DNA of 64,000 bases, taken from contig JBLNBA010000002.1 of the NCBI GenBank assembly GCA_050259635.1, positions 154,906-218,905 on the forward strand, in the 5' to 3' direction. Positions 1 to 62,840 of the stretch are shown here, in pieces. Below the pieces are notes generated by a model. That model worked only from the letters and a program-made list of their open reading frames with translations, was not told where the DNA came from and made no database searches. The position numbers and the translations under genes were made by a program. Source of the stretch: Bacillota bacterium (lineage in GTDB: Bacteria; Patescibacteriota; Patescibacteriia; Patescibacteriales; UBA12465). Each line of letters opens with the position of its first letter. Position 1 is the first letter of the stretch.

Positions 1-30
1 GCAGACCGCGTTTAAAACCATTATTTGATA

Positions 31-67: not shown

Positions 68-95
68 TTGACAAATGTGATAATTGTGTTATTAT
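68..95 (+). promoter_or_regulatory. sigma-70-type promoter: TTGACA (68-73), 16-bp spacer, extended -10 TGtTATTAT (87-95)
   Basis: consensus -35 and extended -10 about 80 nt upstream of the 176 ATG. Confidence 0.5.
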
Positions 96-115
96 TCAAT
101 ATTCCTTAACAAACA

Positions 116-167
116 GGTTTAATTGGTTTTCCCAGACTATGCGTTAGCCTGAGAAAACCAATTAAAC
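116..167. promoter_or_regulatory. perfect 16-bp inverted repeat (GGTTTAATTGGTTTTC / GAAAACCAATTAAACC, about 20-bp spacer) between promoter and start codon; candidate operator or 5'UTR hairpin
   Basis: exact reverse complements at 116-131 and 152-167. Confidence 0.55.
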
Positions 168-175
168 CTTATAAC

Positions 176-1204
176 ATGAACGACAATAGAGTATTTGTAG
201 GAATGAAATGCTTATTAATGCAGCTTCTAACTGCTGGTTTTCCCTTAGCTATTATACTTTCATATCTCGGAATCAGCTCTTCGACTCTTAATACCTATAT
301 TAAGAAATTAAGAGCCTCTGGAGAGTGGGAGGGACAGGTCATCTCATTTCTGCGCAGCATTCCGGCTGTCGTAAGAACTTACGAGCAGCTACGGAGAAAC
401 AAAATCTCCCTCGAAGGCATTGACGCTGTTAAGCTGAGAACCTCCATAGAAACTGCCCTACAGTTTCCTAGGATTATTGGAATCCTAGATATCTCTTTCA
501 GGGGCCTCTTGAATTTGACTACCGTTGCCTGTTCCAAGGATGTTCCCAAAGAGTATCATGATTTCCTTAACCAGGTATTCTTGCGAGAAGGGTTATGGAT
601 GAACAGATACAGCCCTCGGGATATCAAGATAAAGCTAATTGCTCATCTTTCTTCGAAAGAAGAAATTAAGCCTGGTGCTACTAATGACACCTGGTTTATT
701 CCAACCGTTGATGATATCATCACTGAACGTATCGCAGACATGCGGGAGCTTGTTGGTCCATACTTTGATGCTAAAGTCTTAGAACACGTTGATTACCTTC
801 TGTCTCAACTGACAACAAGGGAAGCCGAGGTGCTTAAATATTATTTCGGCATCTGTGGCTGTCCTAAAACTTCTCTCGAACAGATAGCCCCGAAGTTCGA
901 TCTTACTGACGAGCGAACACGGCAGATCAAAGAGAAGGCTCTTAGAAGGAGTAGGGCTCGCAAAGATATCCTTTTACACCCCTTGCCCCAGCCGGCCCCG
1001 GCGATAGAATTGCCGCATTCAACTCCGTTAGAATCCTTAGGATTAACTGTCAGAGTAATGAATGCTCTTGCTCAATTGGAAGTTAAGACTGTCGAGGAGC
1101 TTATCGTCCATCGTGATTCACTTCTCGCCTATAGAAATATGGGCATGAAAAGTAAGCAGGAAATTGATGAGGCTCTCAACAAGTTTCTGCATCCACAGAC
1201 ATAG
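176..1204 (+). CDS. predicted transcription regulator: N-terminal HTH-like segment, sigma-70 region-4-like HTH in the middle, RNAP alpha-subunit C-terminal-domain-like (HhH) module at the C-terminus
   Basis: segment LTTREAEVLKYYFG...SLEQIAPKFDLTDERTRQIKEKALRR aligns to the sigma r4 consensus; segment LESLGLTVRVMNALAQLEVKTVEELI...NMGMKSKQEIDEALNKF aligns to alpha-CTD. Confidence 0.5.
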   Translation: MNDNRVFVGMKCLLMQLLTAGFPLAIILSYLGISSSTLNTYIKKLRASGEWEGQVISFLRSIPAVVRTYEQLRRNKISLEGIDAVKLRTSIETALQFPRIIGILDISFRGLLNLTTVACSKDVPKEYHDFLNQVFLREGLWMNRYSPRDIKIKLIAHLSSKEEIKPGATNDTWFIPTVDDIITERIADMRELVGPYFDAKVLEHVDYLLSQLTTREAEVLKYYFGICGCPKTSLEQIAPKFDLTDERTRQIKEKALRRSRARKDILLHPLPQPAPAIELPHSTPLESLGLTVRVMNALAQLEVKTVEELIVHRDSLLAYRNMGMKSKQEIDEALNKFLHPQT

Positions 1205-1224: not shown

Positions 1225-1251
1225 AGCCATCTTTCAAAGATGGCCTTTTTT
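1225..1251. terminator. bidirectional terminator hairpin (GCCATCTTT c AAAGATGGC + T-run)
   Basis: perfect 9-bp stem with T7 run; sits between convergent genes. Confidence 0.65.
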
Positions 1252-1269
1252 TGTCTGTCAGATAATTTA

Positions 1270-3153
1270 TTACCTCTCGTATTTGAAGAAGTGCAAATCT
1301 CCCTGTCCTATCCGTTGCCAGGAATCGGCGCTGAGCTTGGCTTCGGCGATTATCTTATCACTTGCCCACCAGTATCTGTTGACCACCAAGAAGGCTTGGT
1401 CCACGCCGGCGGCATCCATGGCCTGGACCATAGTTTCTTTTTCGGCTTTCTCATAAACCATCTTCAGATAATACTGGTAAAGCTCGCCGCCGGTAGGAAT
1501 GGGATAGAAATACATTTGCCCTTCTTTGAGATAACGGTTGTGGAATCCCAGTTCTTTTAGGGCGGCAGCACTCACTTGTTGGTTGGCTAAGACGATATAG
1601 GGTTTACCGGCGGCGTTTCTTTCAATATCTAACACCGCCTCGATGTCGGAAGCGGAGGTCGAGTATCCTCTTGAATTATGGTAGTTATCGAACCGGGGGT
1701 AGGAGGCATAAACGGCTAGGACCAATAAGGAAGAAATACCAATTGCAGCAATTAAGCGTACCGGTTTGCTTTGTCTTCCCACTCTTTTGCTCGCTTCTCT
1801 AAGAAGTTCCCAGAAGAGAGGCAGGGAAATAGCTAGGGCAATAATAGGAAGGCGCGCGGCATAATCGCCCTGTTCATAAGCAATCAAGCCTTCGATCCGG
1901 AATCCGCGGCTGATCAAATAAGCACAGAGGGCAGCCAGGGAAATTACCGCCAGGGTAGCTGCGCGTTCTTTGAGGCGGCTTTCTTTTTCCGGCCAGAGAT
2001 TATGGCGGCAAAAAAAGATGCCGAGCGCAGCCAGCAAGATAATCCAGAAATGGTTCGTTATGAACAAATATGCCAGATCAAGAAGATATGTTTCCTGGTT
2101 AGGCAGGGAGGGCATGAGAAGATTGAGATCAAAACTTTGGAAATGCAGGGTGCCAAATCCGGAGATCAGCCAAATCAGGAAAGAGAAAGCAAGGAAGCTG
2201 GCTATGAAGAGGATCGCCGGTTTGAATAAGATTTTTGGCAGCTTCTTTTTTTTCCCGAGGATTGCCAGACAAAGAATTACGGCCGGGACTCCCGCCAGAG
2301 GATGGATGGCGAAAGCGGCAGCGGCTGTTACCAGAGGAAGGACGGCAGGAGCGCCCGCATAAAGGAAAATAGAGACGGCTATCAGGAGCAGGTAGGAAAA
2401 ATTCTGGGGGGTCGTCATGATGAAGGGTGAGAAACTCAAAAAGAAGAGAAGGAGAGCCCCTAACCACCCGGCGGAGCTATGCCCGCGGCTGCGGTTGAGA
2501 TATGAAAAAAGGAAGGGGAGCGAAAAAGCGCTTAAAATGGGAAGGAGCCAGCGATTAAGCGTGCCTAAGGGCAGGCCAAGCCTAACCAGGGCAGTAATGA
2601 GAGCGTATTGCCCTAGATAATAGGGAGTCTTAGGTTGGATCACGCCATATCTGACGATTTCTTCCATAGCGGCCTGATGGATGAAAGGATCGTAGCCGTA
2701 ACCGATGGAAAATATAATGGCAGCTAGCGAGAAGGAACTGATTAGAAAGGGGATCATGGCTGCAGCTTTATAAGGAAAAGAAGCCTTAGAGCTTAGGGCA
2801 AAAACCAGAGATAAAGCGGAAGCGCCGAGGGAGGCTAAAAGCCAGGGGTTGGCAACGGTCCAAGGAGAGATGATCGCTTGGGAGGTAGCTGAGTTTGAGG
2901 CGATTATCAAGGATATAGCTGCGAAGGCGATTGTGCTAACCGACCAAATCCAATAGGGGCGTTCCGGACGGGGATATTTTTCCGTCTCGGTCTTCAAATG
3001 AGCTTTCAGGCCTAAAAAGAGGACGATGGTAATTGCCAGACTGGCTAAAAGGCCGACGGCATTCAGGGAATATACGAAATATACCAAGGCGCCTGCAAAA
3101 AGGAAGACCATGAGGAAGAGCCAAATTAAAGATGGAAGTCTGTTATGGCGCAT
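1270..3153 (-). CDS. polytopic membrane protein (about 12 TM helices plus C-terminal soluble domain), possible GT-C-type membrane glycosyltransferase
   Basis: long hydrophobic N-terminal two-thirds, soluble C-terminal third; family not resolved. Confidence 0.4.
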   Translation of the reverse strand: MRHNRLPSLIWLFLMVFLFAGALVYFVYSLNAVGLLASLAITIVLFLGLKAHLKTETEKYPRPERPYWIWSVSTIAFAAISLIIASNSATSQAIISPWTVANPWLLASLGASALSLVFALSSKASFPYKAAAMIPFLISSFSLAAIIFSIGYGYDPFIHQAAMEEIVRYGVIQPKTPYYLGQYALITALVRLGLPLGTLNRWLLPILSAFSLPFLFSYLNRSRGHSSAGWLGALLLFFLSFSPFIMTTPQNFSYLLLIAVSIFLYAGAPAVLPLVTAAAAFAIHPLAGVPAVILCLAILGKKKKLPKILFKPAILFIASFLAFSFLIWLISGFGTLHFQSFDLNLLMPSLPNQETYLLDLAYLFITNHFWIILLAALGIFFCRHNLWPEKESRLKERAATLAVISLAALCAYLISRGFRIEGLIAYEQGDYAARLPIIALAISLPLFWELLREASKRVGRQSKPVRLIAAIGISSLLVLAVYASYPRFDNYHNSRGYSTSASDIEAVLDIERNAAGKPYIVLANQQVSAAALKELGFHNRYLKEGQMYFYPIPTGGELYQYYLKMVYEKAEKETMVQAMDAAGVDQAFLVVNRYWWASDKIIAEAKLSADSWQRIGQGDLHFFKYER

Positions 3154-3204: not shown

Positions 3205-5028
3205 ATGGATAAGAGCATTATTGCGCTTATATTTATGAAATTTTCCTATCTTTGGCAAAAAAGGCACTATTTTTTTCTAATCCTTCTGGCTTTGGGCTTT
3301 TTTTTGGCAACTTCACTATATAACCTTGCCACTCAAGAATCCGGTTATGTAAAGTTCCTTTCTCCTGATGAGACGGCGAACTACTTTTTTGCCCGCCAAT
3401 ATGCAGAAACGGGGAAGATATCGACTTTTGAACCAGCCAACCTCATTGCCGAAGAGGTAGTGCATCCGCGGAGCATCCGCAGTGATCACGGGATATTGAA
3501 GCCCGTTAGCTTCCTGGGTATTATCCTGGTATACGGGAAGATCGGCGCTTTAGCGGGGACGACTGTAATCCCATATATCACTCCATTATTAGCGGCGATC
3601 GGATTATTGTTTTTTTATGGTTTCGTGCGGCGCCTTTTCGGCCGGAAAACGGCGCTTTATTCCGCCGCGCTTCTAGCTTGTTTCCCTGTATACTTTTTCT
3701 ATACGACGAGGAGCATGTTCCATAATATCCTTTTTATTTTCTTCCTATTAGGCGCCTCCTATTTCTTCCTTCGAGCCATACCGCTAAAGTCCGAAGAAAA
3801 GCGCCCTTTCATTTCCTTCAAGATAACGGGGAAGCAGGCGGTCACTTGGTTTTTTTCAGTGGCGGCCGGATTGTTTGTCGGCGGAGCAATCGGGGCGCGC
3901 GCGTCCGAATTACTTTGGCTGGCTCCGACTCTGTTTATCGCTTGGGTTTCTTTCGCTAAGCGGATCGGGATAACGCGTCTGGTGTTGATGGTGGCGGGGA
4001 TGATTATCGCTTTGCTCCCGGTCTTCTATTGGAACCAGATATTATACTCCTCTCCTTTCTACGGCGGTTATGGAGAAATGAACCGATCCATTAGCGAACT
4101 TTCCCAAGCAGGCGGAAGCCTGATCCAGTCTACCGTCCATGGTAATTTTTCCCAATACCGGGCGGTCGGGCAGGCCTTAATCGATAACATCTTTTATTTT
4201 GGCTATCAGCCTTACCAATCTTTACGGATGTTTTATTACTATGTCGTCGCTATGTTCCCTCTTTTTTGCGGCCTGGTATTCATTGGCGGGGTGATCTTCC
4301 TTATCCGCTTAAGACGCCGGTCTCTCCGGCCGGCTTTGGTGTATCTGTCTTGTTGGCTCACTTTATCCCTTATCCTCGTCTTTTATTACGGTAGCTGGAA
4401 GTTCAATGATAATCCTGATCCGAGCCGGTTTACTATCGGTAATTCGTATACGAGATATTGGCTGCCGATGTATATTATGGCCATCCCTTTTGCTGCTTTG
4501 GCCTTGGAAAGCGTGGGGCGCTGGCTTGGGACTCTCATTCCTAAGGAGCCGGCTTTGCTATGGAAAGAACGATCCAGGAAAATGATCATGGTTTCTGTTT
4601 CGGCTATGGCTACCGCTTCCGTCTGCTTCCTTTTCTTGATGTATACTGTTTTCGGTTCGGAGGAAGGCTTGGCTAATCTTTATTACAATCATTTTATAGA
4701 CAAGGAGAATGCCGAGGCTATCCTTTCTCGTACTCCTGACAATGCGATTATCATGACACAGTATCATGACAAGCAATTATTCCCTGAAAGGAAGGTTATC
4801 AATGCGCTTTTAACTAACGAACAAATTAATATCAGCGTTGGGCGGATACTGGAACATTATCCGATCTATTATTTTAATTTCGCCTTCCCCGAAAAGGATT
4901 ATCTTTACCTTAAAGAACGGCGTTTGCCGACCTATGGATTCACCTTTGAACTCTTGGAACGCCGTGGCCGTTTTGGGTTGTATGAATTAAAGCCAGCGGA
5001 AGCCGGACAAGTTTCTTATGAAAGATAG
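3205..5028 (+). CDS. ArnT/PMT-like (GT39/GT83-type) membrane glycosyltransferase
   Basis: multi-TM protein with DE motif in the first extracytoplasmic loop (SPDETANYFFARQYAETGK); start may be the internal Met at about 3235. Confidence 0.45.
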   Translation: MDKSIIALIFMKFSYLWQKRHYFFLILLALGFFLATSLYNLATQESGYVKFLSPDETANYFFARQYAETGKISTFEPANLIAEEVVHPRSIRSDHGILKPVSFLGIILVYGKIGALAGTTVIPYITPLLAAIGLLFFYGFVRRLFGRKTALYSAALLACFPVYFFYTTRSMFHNILFIFFLLGASYFFLRAIPLKSEEKRPFISFKITGKQAVTWFFSVAAGLFVGGAIGARASELLWLAPTLFIAWVSFAKRIGITRLVLMVAGMIIALLPVFYWNQILYSSPFYGGYGEMNRSISELSQAGGSLIQSTVHGNFSQYRAVGQALIDNIFYFGYQPYQSLRMFYYYVVAMFPLFCGLVFIGGVIFLIRLRRRSLRPALVYLSCWLTLSLILVFYYGSWKFNDNPDPSRFTIGNSYTRYWLPMYIMAIPFAALALESVGRWLGTLIPKEPALLWKERSRKMIMVSVSAMATASVCFLFLMYTVFGSEEGLANLYYNHFIDKENAEAILSRTPDNAIIMTQYHDKQLFPERKVINALLTNEQINISVGRILEHYPIYYFNFAFPEKDYLYLKERRLPTYGFTFELLERRGRFGLYELKPAEAGQVSYER

Positions 5029-8869: not shown

Positions 8870-10204
8870 CTAGCGGAGTCCCGTGCTGCCGAAACCGCCG
8901 TCTAAGCGGCTGGTATCATTTTCCACCTTTCCTTCTTCTATCTTGGGAAATTCTACTTTCTGGATTAAGAGCTGAGCTATTTTCTGTCCCGCTTGGATAT
9001 TATATATATCTTCGCTCAGATTCTTGAAGACGACCATGATTTCTCCGCGGTAGCCGGAATCTATGACTCCGCCCATCGTCTTATATCCTTGGGCGGCTAA
9101 GCCGCTCTTATCCCAGATCAAACCGGCATACCCCTCCGGAATCATGAGCTTGACGCCGGTGCGGATGCGATCCGTGCCATAGGCGGGGACGGAGACGTTT
9201 TCGCAGGCATAAAGATCAAGGCCGGCATCAGTGGCATGTGCCCGCGTGGGCAGCTTGGCTTCTGCGTGAACTCTCTCGGCAAGGATTGCTGGTTTCTCAT
9301 TATCCGTGACAGAGGCAGGGAGGGCAGTGGCAGCGGTAACGGGGGTAAGATTCTCTCGCGTGTCTTCCGGGTGGGCGGGGACTCCTTTTTCTCCCCTGTC
9401 TGTTTGCCCGATCTCCGCTTTGGGGGTGTCGATGAACTGTGGCAGGTTACTGCCGATTTTTCCCTTGCCTACGAGGATATCCGCCACCGGTTGCATGCCG
9501 GCCGGCTTTTTCGTACCGCCGATGCTCAGGATGCGGTTGACATAGAGCCAGACAAGGTAGTTTATATCTTCTCGGCTCATAATCTCGCCGTTGCGGGTGC
9601 AGCGGATGAGACGGAAGTCCGGCATCGTCTGTGCTATTTCCAGATATACCTGTTCTGCTTTTTTGAGATGCTGCAGGTTTTCTTCGTGGATGTCTTTGGT
9701 TTTTCCTTTCCAATCCTCGCGTCCGCGGTCCTGAGCCATCTTTTGGGCTATTTCCGCCTCTACATGCAGGATGAGATAGAGATCGGGCTTGGGAATACGG
9801 AAGATCTTGTATTCGATCTCGCTTAACCAGTTGAAGAATAACTTCCTTTCCAAAGCGTTTTCTATTTTCCCCCCCTGGTGGGCGAAGCTGGCGGAAACAT
9901 AACGGTTACAGACCACGATCTTGCCCTGGGAAAGCCATTCGCGGATCTTGAAGCTGGCATCAAAACGATCGGTGGCGTATAAGATCGAGGCTGCATACGG
10001 ATTGACGTCATCTGCGCCTCCGTATTTTCCTGAGAGATATTCTTCCACCATGCCCGCGGATTTCTGATTATATTGCGGAAAGTCTGCCAACTCCACGTCG
10101 TATCCTTCGGCCGCGAGCTTGGATACCAAAAGTTGCAGCTGTGTAGTTTTGCCGCTGCCGTCGGTGCCGTCTATGACAATGAATTTTCCGGGATAGGATG
10201 ACAT
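8870..10204 (-). CDS. tmk-dut: fusion protein: thymidylate kinase (N-terminal) + dUTPase (C-terminal)
   Basis: Tmk P-loop IVIDGTDGSGKTTQ and DRFDAS motif; all five dUTPase motifs at the C-terminus (AGLDLY, KSG, GVIDSGYRGE, KIAQLL, RLDGGFGSTG); low-complexity linker about 100 aa. Confidence 0.8.
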   Translation of the reverse strand: MSSYPGKFIVIDGTDGSGKTTQLQLLVSKLAAEGYDVELADFPQYNQKSAGMVEEYLSGKYGGADDVNPYAASILYATDRFDASFKIREWLSQGKIVVCNRYVSASFAHQGGKIENALERKLFFNWLSEIEYKIFRIPKPDLYLILHVEAEIAQKMAQDRGREDWKGKTKDIHEENLQHLKKAEQVYLEIAQTMPDFRLIRCTRNGEIMSREDINYLVWLYVNRILSIGGTKKPAGMQPVADILVGKGKIGSNLPQFIDTPKAEIGQTDRGEKGVPAHPEDTRENLTPVTAATALPASVTDNEKPAILAERVHAEAKLPTRAHATDAGLDLYACENVSVPAYGTDRIRTGVKLMIPEGYAGLIWDKSGLAAQGYKTMGGVIDSGYRGEIMVVFKNLSEDIYNIQAGQKIAQLLIQKVEFPKIEEGKVENDTSRLDGGFGSTGLR

Positions 10205-62127: not shown

Positions 62128-62230
62128 AGAAAAGATCTCACAATGGGGTCTTTTTTATTGCTCCCTAAGCCTATTGACTAGATGTGTATATTGTGGTAAT
62201 GTCTGACGGTGGTTCATTACAATGGATGGG

Positions 62231-62273
62231 TTGATAATCGAATTCGTCTTTTAAAGGTGGCGTCGATTATCAA
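62231..62273. promoter_or_regulatory. perfect 11-bp inverted repeat TTGATAATCGA-N21-TCGATTATCAA upstream of the 62295 gene; candidate operator
   Basis: exact reverse complements. Confidence 0.45.
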
Positions 62274-62294
62274 TCAATCCTAAAAAACAAACAA

Positions 62295-62840
62295 ATGGAA
62301 AGCAGATTATCAATGAATTCATTAGAAAAGCTGGTTAAAAAAACCGGTCAGGCTTTTTGCAGGTGTTTTCGAATAAATACGGTTGCAAGGGCAATGTTGT
62401 TCAATTCTATATTGGCTCGGGTAATATTTTTTACCGAAGCAATATTGGTAGGGCTGATGAGCCTTGCTGTTTATCTGATTAAGGATAATTTTTCGGTGGC
62501 GATAATCATAGCCACAGCGATTACCCTGTTGGGAGTTGCATGCCTACTTTATTACTTGAGTAAGCTCATGGGAGCACTCCTTTACCCCACTAGATGGAAA
62601 CTAAGTTCCGAGCAGCGTCAACGTCTGTGGGGAGATAACTACCCCAAGCTATTAGCCGGCAATATTTGTGCGTTAGATGATGACGTATTTTTTTACGGGT
62701 GTTTAGTTTATGAGCCGTACGAAGAAAAGAAAATAGCCAAAGCTATCATCGAAACGCCTTTTGTTTCTTCGGCAGAAAAAATTCGCGGTGACCTTGATTC
62801 TATTTTGGAAATAAAAAGCAAGTTCACTAAATGTTTGTAA
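62295..62840 (+). CDS. hypothetical membrane protein
   Basis: 2-3 TM segments. Confidence 0.4.
   Translation: MESRLSMNSLEKLVKKTGQAFCRCFRINTVARAMLFNSILARVIFFTEAILVGLMSLAVYLIKDNFSVAIIIATAITLLGVACLLYYLSKLMGALLYPTRWKLSSEQRQRLWGDNYPKLLAGNICALDDDVFFYGCLVYEPYEEKKIAKAIIETPFVSSAEKIRGDLDSILEIKSKFTKCL

Follow-up and report, generated by a model that had tools for sequence, protein, structure and literature searches.

Introduction

Two textbook components of RNA polymerase, region 4 of the sigma-70 factors and the C-terminal domain of the alpha subunit (alpha-CTD), work together on the upstream half of strong promoters. Here we analyze a gene in which both modules occur in a single protein of 342 amino acids, together with the long palindrome that lies between its promoter and its start codon. 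The gene is found in a 64,000-nucleotide stretch of contig JBLNBA010000002.1 (forward strand, positions 154,906 to 218,905; assembly GCA_050259635.1), which is labeled "Bacillota bacterium" at NCBI and placed in the Patescibacteriota lineage UBA12465 by GTDB; this whole stretch is called the window below, and coordinates refer to it unless another contig is named. As judged from sequence comparisons and a structure model, the product is probably a stand-alone, sequence-specific transcription regulator, and neither a sigma factor nor a polymerase subunit.

With the sigma-70 factors (RpoD/SigA), the protein shares region 4, the reader of the −35 element, but it lacks regions 1.2 to 3, so that there is neither sigma2 binding to the core enzyme nor recognition of the −10 element, and its region 4 sits in mid-protein between unrelated flanks. 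With RpoA, it shares the helix-hairpin-helix CTD, in which the DNA-binding residues of the "265 determinant" are kept, whereas the alpha N-terminal domain for dimerization and assembly is missing and the acidic residues of the "261 determinant" are replaced by serine and glycine (most family members have D or E there). PhyR, a case of sigma mimicry, has a sigma2-sigma4 domain like that of extracytoplasmic function (ECF) factors, a receiver domain and the partner NepR, none of which was found for the 342-residue protein (Response_reg and sigma2 were unmatched). MzaA (region 4) and PglW of the bacteriophage exclusion (BREX) system (an alpha-CTD-like helix-hairpin-helix) likewise employ these modules as general DNA-binding units, but the matches of our protein reach 47.3 bits against a cut-off of 800 and 20.9 against 990, respectively, and its gene has no kinase, ATPase or system genes as neighbors. 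The match to regulators of the LuxR/GerE type is sub-threshold (GerE in Pfam, N-terminal residues 14-45, 16.3 versus 23.5 bits). Large proteins that combine region 4 with one to eight alpha-CTD repeats (P0084, P0085, P0091, P0105) are alike in carrying both modules in one chain, but their order (the CTD repeats usually precede region 4), copy number and size are different, and they lack the N-terminal helix-turn-helix (HTH) and helical domain described below. Lastly, autoregulated HTH repressors resemble the locus in that the gene of the regulator itself has a strong promoter with a long palindrome behind it; here, though, the arms are unusually long (16-27 bp, with a 5-21 nt loop) and the pairing itself is conserved, and for this reason an RNA or cruciform reading is equally placed. 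We found no paper on architectures joining region 4 to an alpha-CTD within the one literature collection searched.

Results

Domain architecture of the protein

The gene and its four segments are as follows.

176-1204, plus strand: complete open reading frame (ORF) of 342 amino acids with an ATG start, a family member arranged as N-terminal HTH, helical domain, sigma region 4, alpha-CTD
176-319, plus strand: N-terminal three-helix HTH (aa 1-48), with the conserved motifs MNDxR...LLxLGMP...IS.sT..nY...L
347-775, plus strand: family-specific all-helical domain (aa 58-200), with a conserved DVPxGY motif (Y127)
788-961, plus strand: sigma-70 region-4 domain (aa 205-262), with the equivalents of sigma70 E585, R586, R588, Q589 and R603 kept and D at the position of R584
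1016-1189, plus strand: alpha-CTD-type helix-hairpin-helix domain (aa 281-338), with the equivalents of alpha R265, N268, G296, K298 and S299 kept

A first-pass annotation, made from the letters of this DNA without database searches, had read the product as a sigma region 4 joined to an alpha-CTD, lacking both sigma region 2 and the N-terminal domain of alpha, and Pfam, NCBIfam and the structure model all agree with that composition. Both profiles it had proposed for a check were recovered above the Pfam thresholds, Sigma70_r4 (PF04545) at residues 208-258 with 37.6 bits against a cut-off of 24.1, and RNA_pol_A_CTD (PF03118) at residues 281-335 with 47.0 bits against 23.8. Pfam gave zero matches in the protein to Sigma70_r2, Sigma70_r3 or the alpha N-terminal families (RNA_pol_L / RNA_pol_A_bac), and the NCBIfam models for RpoD, RpoS and RpoA were matched at their region-4 or CTD ends only, far under their cut-offs (for the rpoA models, only the C-terminal 55 residues, at 41.5 bits versus 227.8). 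Evolutionarily, region 4 is closest to that of primary sigma factors, sharing 46-59% of residues with RpoD region 4 and, in a pattern-selected set of Bacteroidota RpoD sequences, as much as 64%, while the alpha-CTD matches solved RpoA chains with E-values to 4e-24. Both modules thus find their best resemblance in Bacteroidota RpoD and RpoA, yet the promoters of the host are canonical (TTGACA/TATAAT).

Structurally, an AlphaFold2 model built with 36 family sequences reached a pLDDT of 92.5 and a pTM of 0.71 (pLDDT was 58 with four sequences), and is weak only at the linker between region 4 and the CTD (residues 270-280) and at the extreme C-terminus. The third, N-terminal HTH suspected in the first-pass annotation stands in part: the three-helix unit is confidently modeled (helices at residues 4-19, 24-31 and 35-47), and weak HTH matches occur at the N-terminus across 36 members (HTH_23 in 6, GerE in 5, HTH_11 in 4 and HTH_28 in 4), whereas the protein itself stays below the GerE threshold. 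For the helical domain at residues 58-200, profile comparisons detected no relative outside the family. We treat the N-terminal half as presumably a family-specific HTH plus helical domain, and not as degenerate sigma2/sigma3, because profile-profile comparison of residues 1-204 with an RpoD alignment gave a probability of 0.3% and found the N-terminal sub-domains unrelated to region 4, to the CTD or to sigma regions. The notion that the N-terminal HTH is a duplicate of region 4 found no support in the same sub-domain comparison.

The residues that would touch DNA are largely conserved, where we take the contacts to be those of the alpha "265 determinant" and of sigma70 at the −35 element as assigned in the E. 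coli literature. In the family alignment, which comprises 36 sequences as do all residue counts unless stated, the alpha contacts are kept in 33 (R265), 31 (N268), 35 (G296), 28 (K298), 33 (S299, as S or T) and 32 (E302) members, and the sigma70 contacts in 22 (E585), 31 (R586), 21 (R588) and 30 (Q589). Every counted contact residue is present in the 342-residue protein (R293, N296, G323, K325 and S326 being the equivalents of alpha R265, N268, G296, K298 and S299), the exception being the aspartate at the R584 position. As for contacts between the modules, an equivalent of sigma70 R603 occurs in 15 of 22 aligned members, and the position of alpha E261 is acidic in 24 of 36 but G in our protein.

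A rare family with this layout

Word-index protein searches returned four relatives only, among 5.8 billion clusters, and an exhaustive profile search returned 56 proteins at E <= 1e-30. When each segment was scanned for with its own hidden Markov model, about 40 representatives of 340-420 amino acids, from clustering at 50% identity, proved to have the four segments in one common order; the family as a whole amounts to roughly 40-55 clusters at that level. Their alignment shows the conserved motifs MNDxRxF, LLxLGMP, IS.sT..nY and DVPxGY, the CTD motifs, and an invariant glycine in the "YFGL" of region 4; the relatives are of the same length and have the N-terminus MNDxR in common. The 342-residue protein has the four segments in order, aligns over its full length, and carries MNDxR, LLxLGMP and DVPxGY. 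It is established, then, as a full-length member of a conserved family composed of DNA-binding modules with intact contact residues, and the family itself, N-terminal HTH plus helical domain plus region 4 plus alpha-CTD, is new, rare and uncharacterized. The unusual architecture claimed at first pass is real, but it is less singular than implied, given this family of identical layout and the other proteins that combine region 4 with alpha-CTD: more than 100 of the best 150 matches of the exhaustive search join region 4 to one to eight alpha-CTD repeats.

These other proteins (P0072-P0196, 200-1700 amino acids) form a large and seemingly undescribed set in which region 4 is accompanied by one to eight tandem alpha-CTD repeats and, in some, by HARE-HTH, Spo0A_C, MerR-type HTH or SF2 helicase domains. 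P0049, encoded at 7107-8939 of contig L007, has 610 amino acids with an N-terminal alpha-CTD and a central region 4, and its gene follows, on the same strand, genes for a DEAD/ResIII helicase, an SMC/AAA_23-like ATPase and a Dnd-associated protein, a cluster that resembles a defense system.

Promoter, palindrome and terminators of the gene

The signals around the gene are listed here.

68-95, plus strand: sigma-70-type promoter, −35 TTGACA at 68-73, 16-nt spacer, extended −10 TGtTATTAT at 87-95
115-169, plus strand: hairpin-forming palindrome with 25-nt arms (115-139 and 145-169) of 92% complementarity, arm core TTTAATTGG / CCAATTAAA
26-59, plus strand: terminator-like hairpin, AAAAAGGGCTAAT/ATAAGCCCTTTTT with a T run behind it, that belongs to the upstream gene and parts the 342-residue gene from this neighbor
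1226-1254, plus strand: intrinsic-terminator-like hairpin GCCATCTTTCAAAGATGGC (1226-1244) with a T run behind it, between the 342-residue gene and the convergent gene at 1270-3153 (minus strand)

The promoter, described as near-consensus with an extended −10 in the first-pass annotation, indeed has 11 of 12 matches plus the extension (TG at 87-88, TATTAT at 90-95), and the transcript would start near position 102. It is strong yet ordinary for this genome, because promoters of the form TTGAC[AT]-16..18-TAnnnT are common in the window (12 in 64 kb). No Shine-Dalgarno sequence precedes the ORF at 176, in a genome poor in such sequences. The gene had also been called AT-rich relative to its surroundings; its GC content is lower (43.7%, against 49.1 +/- 3.3% for 48 ORFs, rank 4 of 48), but the difference is mild, at about −1.6 standard deviations.

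The perfect 16-bp inverted repeat that had been seen between promoter and ATG is there, with arms at 116-131 and 152-167, as the core of the longer palindrome at 115-169, which ends 6 nt 5' of the ATG and is the longest inverted repeat of the 64-kb window. As RNA, it folds with −30.2 kcal/mol (z = −6.4), a value that none of 200 shuffled sequences equaled. With Rfam 15, the interval 113-171 reached no gathering score and gave sub-threshold matches to generic hairpins only (tRNAs alone reach the gathering score in the window). A repeated element of the REP or MITE kind was considered and ruled out by a covariance model, which finds one copy in the window.

A second arrangement of strong promoter, hairpin and ATG lies at 62175-62297. 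It has a TTGACT-17-TAATGT promoter with TG and an inverted repeat at 62224-62241 / 62263-62280 (18-nt arms, 89%; RNA fold −25.8 kcal/mol, z −3.8), and 14 nt after the second arm stands the ATG of a 181-residue membrane-like ORF with no Pfam match and a low GC content (39.7%). Its arms are not clearly akin to the element at 115-169 (13.6 bits, E 4.2, model R1).

The palindrome in relatives of the gene

Long inverted repeats also lie upstream of the family genes at four other loci, L004 (perfect arms of 19 nt), L006, L088 (27-nt arms) and L089, so that the element precedes five family genes counting the window, with the common core TTAnTTG...CAAnTAA. The arms share a TTTAnTTGAATTA-like sequence, of which the version in the window is TTTAATTGGTTTT. 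The proteins of these five lineages are only 26-43% identical to one another, the sole close pair being P0003/P0028 (62%). When the five hairpins are aligned, 90% of the cells are paired and 13 of 27 pairs have changed on both sides; none of 500 shuffles reaches any of five covariation measures, and slid registers fall to 25-54% pairing, although the structure tested was derived from the very sequences in the test. The folds across family loci are very stable, with z-scores of −4.9 to −7.6. The hint given at first pass, that the palindrome suggests autoregulation or a 5' untranslated hairpin, has been strengthened by this conservation and by the compensatory changes in other lineages.

Three weaker copies were found with the covariance model, filters off, at E-values of 0.04-0.07 in 72 kb, which are to be taken as rough.

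L091, 3208-3267: weaker copy, ends 6 nt 5' of the ATG of a 119-residue lipoprotein-like ORF
L091, 4456-4514: weaker copy, ends 6 nt 5' of the ATG at 4521
L089, 118-170: weaker copy, perfect 16-bp arms TTTGGTTAATTGTTAA, 21 nt 5' of a 65-residue membrane ORF

The L091 arms, AGTTTTGATTGGT...ACCAATTAAAACT, are close to those of the window, and the 11-mer AACCAATTAAA occurs in both; the presence of extra copies before small envelope-type genes in L091 and L089 hints at a small regulon. On these comparisons of sequence, we regard the palindrome as established to be a selected cis-element tied to family genes and a few other genes.

The position and presence of the element vary. In the window, L004 and L006 it lies downstream of the predicted −10, while in L088 and L089 it overlaps the sole nearby promoter-like site on the strand of the gene. 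L001, a close relative, has a different palindrome, placed upstream of its promoter; the family gene of L091 has a half-site only; and the members of the long subfamily (L090, L094-L100) have A-rich leaders without a palindrome. Both L001 and L091 have a "ATTGAACCTT..AAAAC" stretch before the ATG of the family gene that resembles the right arm of the window. A stretch of the form ATT(G/A)AACCTT..(A)AAAC precedes the family ATG at L001 9965-10000, L091 7970-8000 and window 158-175; it makes up the end of the right arm in the window and stands alone, like a half-site, in L001 and L091. The leaders of L004 and L006 are 120-170 nt long with two hairpins each, a second, shorter inverted repeat of the type TTCAAAG...CTTTGAA lying between promoter and main hairpin (L004 340-400, L006 255-283).

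Genomic contexts

Seven contexts of family genes were examined: the window and L005 (taken as one), L001, L088, L091, L093, L090, and a JGI record that comes with no DNA. Each is chromosomal and unlike the others, with no synteny, and the neighbors across loci include mreBC, ruvA, proS, aroA, RNase Y, clpP, tig, ddl, scpAB, mraY and ftsW. In every one the family gene is monocistronic with its own near-consensus promoter (TTGAC(A/T)-16/17-TAnnnT), and no conserved operon partner, be it an anti-sigma factor, kinase or receiver, was found in the seven. L005 is an independent Logan contig that encodes an identical protein and extends 10 kb upstream, through a gene for a 121-residue protein (L005 9475-9840) that ends at about window position 15, and further genes for ATP synthase, GroES/EL, YceG and a DUF3160 protein. 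That the gene might be a truncated sigma or alpha gene, which the first-pass annotation had named as a refuting condition, is ruled out, because the longer contig continues upstream, a terminator separates the gene from its neighbor, and relatives keep both the length and the N-terminus MNDxR.

The suggestion at first pass of a phage-style transcription hijacker found no support. A protein search of IMG/VR found no viral relatives of the 342-residue protein, PHROGs matched region 4 only, BFVD yielded no viral structural analog of the whole protein, and housekeeping genes are the neighbors at every locus. A DNA-pattern scan of viral contigs gave chance AT-rich matches only (the best at 36 bits, versus 57-73 for true copies of the palindrome), with no family gene nearby.

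Elsewhere in the window, two divergent genes for large multi-pass membrane proteins lie just downstream (1270-3153, minus strand, and 3205-5028, plus strand), one without a Pfam match and the other with DUF6541 and a weak, glycosyltransferase-like PMT_2 match. A 444-residue ORF at 8870-10204 (minus strand) matches the thymidylate kinase and dUTPase families, an apparent Tmk-Dut fusion, and adjoins a ThyX gene. The genome almost totally lacks Shine-Dalgarno sequences yet has canonical TTGACA-17-TATAAT promoters, a combination that fits poorly with the NCBI label "Bacillota bacterium".

Discussion

Functionally, the protein would act most like a multi-module HTH regulator, and we tentatively favor a self-regulated DNA-binding regulator with the palindrome as its candidate operator, the likeliest of the readings considered here, if still somewhat short of an even chance. 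Three DNA-binding modules would follow one another in the chain: an N-terminal HTH on a helical domain, a primary-sigma-type region 4 serving as −35 reader, and an alpha-CTD on a flexible linker serving as minor-groove reader of A/T-rich DNA. The gene would be expressed from its own strong sigma-70-type promoter as far as its own terminator, and the protein would then read, as DNA, the palindrome that separates promoter from start codon, in which each arm is an A/T tract followed by TTG, like a proximal UP element and the beginning of a −35 hexamer. By binding there, the protein would block or modulate its own expression, a negative autoregulation, and the same element before a few small envelope-protein genes in relatives would extend this to a small regulon. 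We infer binding to the palindrome because the two co-occur, because the arm sequence is conserved across deep divergence, and because of the look of the arms. A sequence-specific reader is indicated by the fact that the sequence of the arms, and not their pairing alone, is kept across divergent lineages, and the overlap of the palindrome with the sole promoter-like site in L088 and L089 is as expected of an operator.

Several observations weigh against such an operator. The spacing of the TTG cores between arms varies (35, 40, 41 and 42 bp), a variation that a hairpin accommodates more readily than a rigid operator for a dimer, and pairing is kept even at stem positions that differ between lineages. 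Departures from perfect pairing on the sense strand lean to RNA, with 13 of the G.U type and 5 of the C.A type, although related loci share them and the counts are not independent. In three copies, that of the window and both in L091, the distance from the end of the element to an ATG is 6 nt, and the genome has no Shine-Dalgarno sequences, which suggests a role in translation. The recognition helix of region 4 is near-invariant in the clade of the window, whereas the arms differ (TTGGTT in the window, TTGAAT in others). Added to these are the loci that depart from the pattern (the differently placed and different palindrome of L001, the half-site at the L091 family gene, and the absence of the palindrome from the long subfamily), extra copies that score only at the rough E-values given above, and the unrelated promoter-hairpin-ATG arrangement at 62175-62297.

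Much of this evidence suits the main rival, which we consider possible but somewhat doubtful: a leader RNA hairpin that acts independently of the encoded protein and sets translation efficiency or mRNA half-life. Such a hairpin may occlude an A/U-rich landing site of the ribosome, or be a target of a double-strand-specific RNase, and the protein would then be a regulator of other targets. At three loci (the window, L004 and L006) the element lies 3' of the predicted −10 and so is transcribed; the stability of the folds, the compensatory changes along the whole stem, the excess of G.U departures, the 6-nt distance to the ATG, the want of Shine-Dalgarno sequences and the second arrangement of different sequence in the same window all point the same way. 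Set against it are the conservation of arm sequence beyond pairing between lineages with 26-36% protein identity, the lack of a convincing promoter upstream of the element in L088 and L089, the placement of the L001 palindrome upstream of a strong promoter, the sharing of the G.U departures among related loci, and the failure to match any Rfam family.

Returning to the self-regulated DNA-binding protein that we favor, a more specific version of it is attractive but rather speculative. The alpha-CTD and sigma4 are said to touch at the junction of the UP-proximal site and the −35 element in the holoenzyme, with R603 involved, as Ross and colleagues reportedly described in 2003. Most members retain the residues of this contact, but in our protein the E261 position is occupied by glycine. 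The protein could imitate, in one chain, the half of the holoenzyme that recognizes the upstream part of promoters, with sigma4 beside the alpha-CTD as at that junction, reading half-sites of "A/T tract + TTG" within long palindromes; its hairpin-capable operators would lie a few bases 5' of start codons and make up a small regulon, specific to the lineage, to which its own gene belongs. More broadly, the hundreds of proteins that combine region 4 with alpha-CTD repeats may be an unrecognized class of regulators or silencers of promoter-like DNA.

It is improbable, in our estimate, that the protein targets RNA polymerase or its partners instead of DNA, as the decoy or anti-sigma-like factor proposed at first pass and in the manner of the sigma mimicry of PhyR. 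On that route, region 4, once detached, might sit on the beta-flap or sequester either an anti-sigma factor or an activator that binds region 4, and a detached alpha-CTD could capture regulators that bind alpha-CTD. The nearness of region 4 to primary-sigma region 4 agrees with this, as does the frequent presence of the R603 equivalent, a residue reported to touch alpha-CTD in the holoenzyme, and a strong promoter suits a titrating factor. But nothing speaks for this reading specifically, the residues conserved family-wide are those that contact DNA, the 261-determinant equivalents are S and G in our protein, the contexts examined show no conserved neighbor that could be a partner (an anti-sigma factor, kinase or receiver), and the conserved cis-element would be left unexplained.

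A divergent complete sigma factor, with an N-terminal half of degenerate sigma2/sigma3 and an acquired alpha-CTD, is highly improbable: structural matches in Foldseek (E 0.01 or worse, TM 0.16-0.19) are accounted for by region 4, the N-terminal profile comparisons described above found nothing of the kind, and Pfam matches Sigma70_r2 or Sigma70_r3 in no member. Just as remote is a component of a mobile element, phage or defense system (as PglW and MzaA are), or an artifact of assembly or truncation; weak PADLOC and NCBIfam matches to MzaA (its region-4 part) and PglW (its CTD-like part), the distant P0049 behind its helicase, SMC-like ATPase and Dnd-associated cluster, and the slightly low GC of the gene lean that way, but the matches are confined to the shared modules and lie far under the cut-offs, no viral relatives were found, the neighbors are housekeeping genes, the same protein appears in the NCBI assembly and in an independent Logan assembly, and its full length is conserved in the family.

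Of what had first been noticed at this locus, the hint of autoregulation or a hairpin proved the most informative part, and the locus pairs an unusual protein with a conserved cis-element. The family is rare and found in uncultured organisms, and its practical value will be modest until a host can be cultivated or the parts are tried heterologously. A long palindrome that often stands a few bases from the start codon is a testable regulatory device in organisms without Shine-Dalgarno sequences. The proteins themselves offer a natural system for asking what sigma4 and alpha-CTD recognize without the rest of the enzyme, and whether such proteins compete with the polymerase at promoters. A family in which a detached region 4 and an alpha-CTD are joined to a further HTH would demonstrate that the promoter readers of the polymerase are put to a second use by bacteria, as free-standing regulators.

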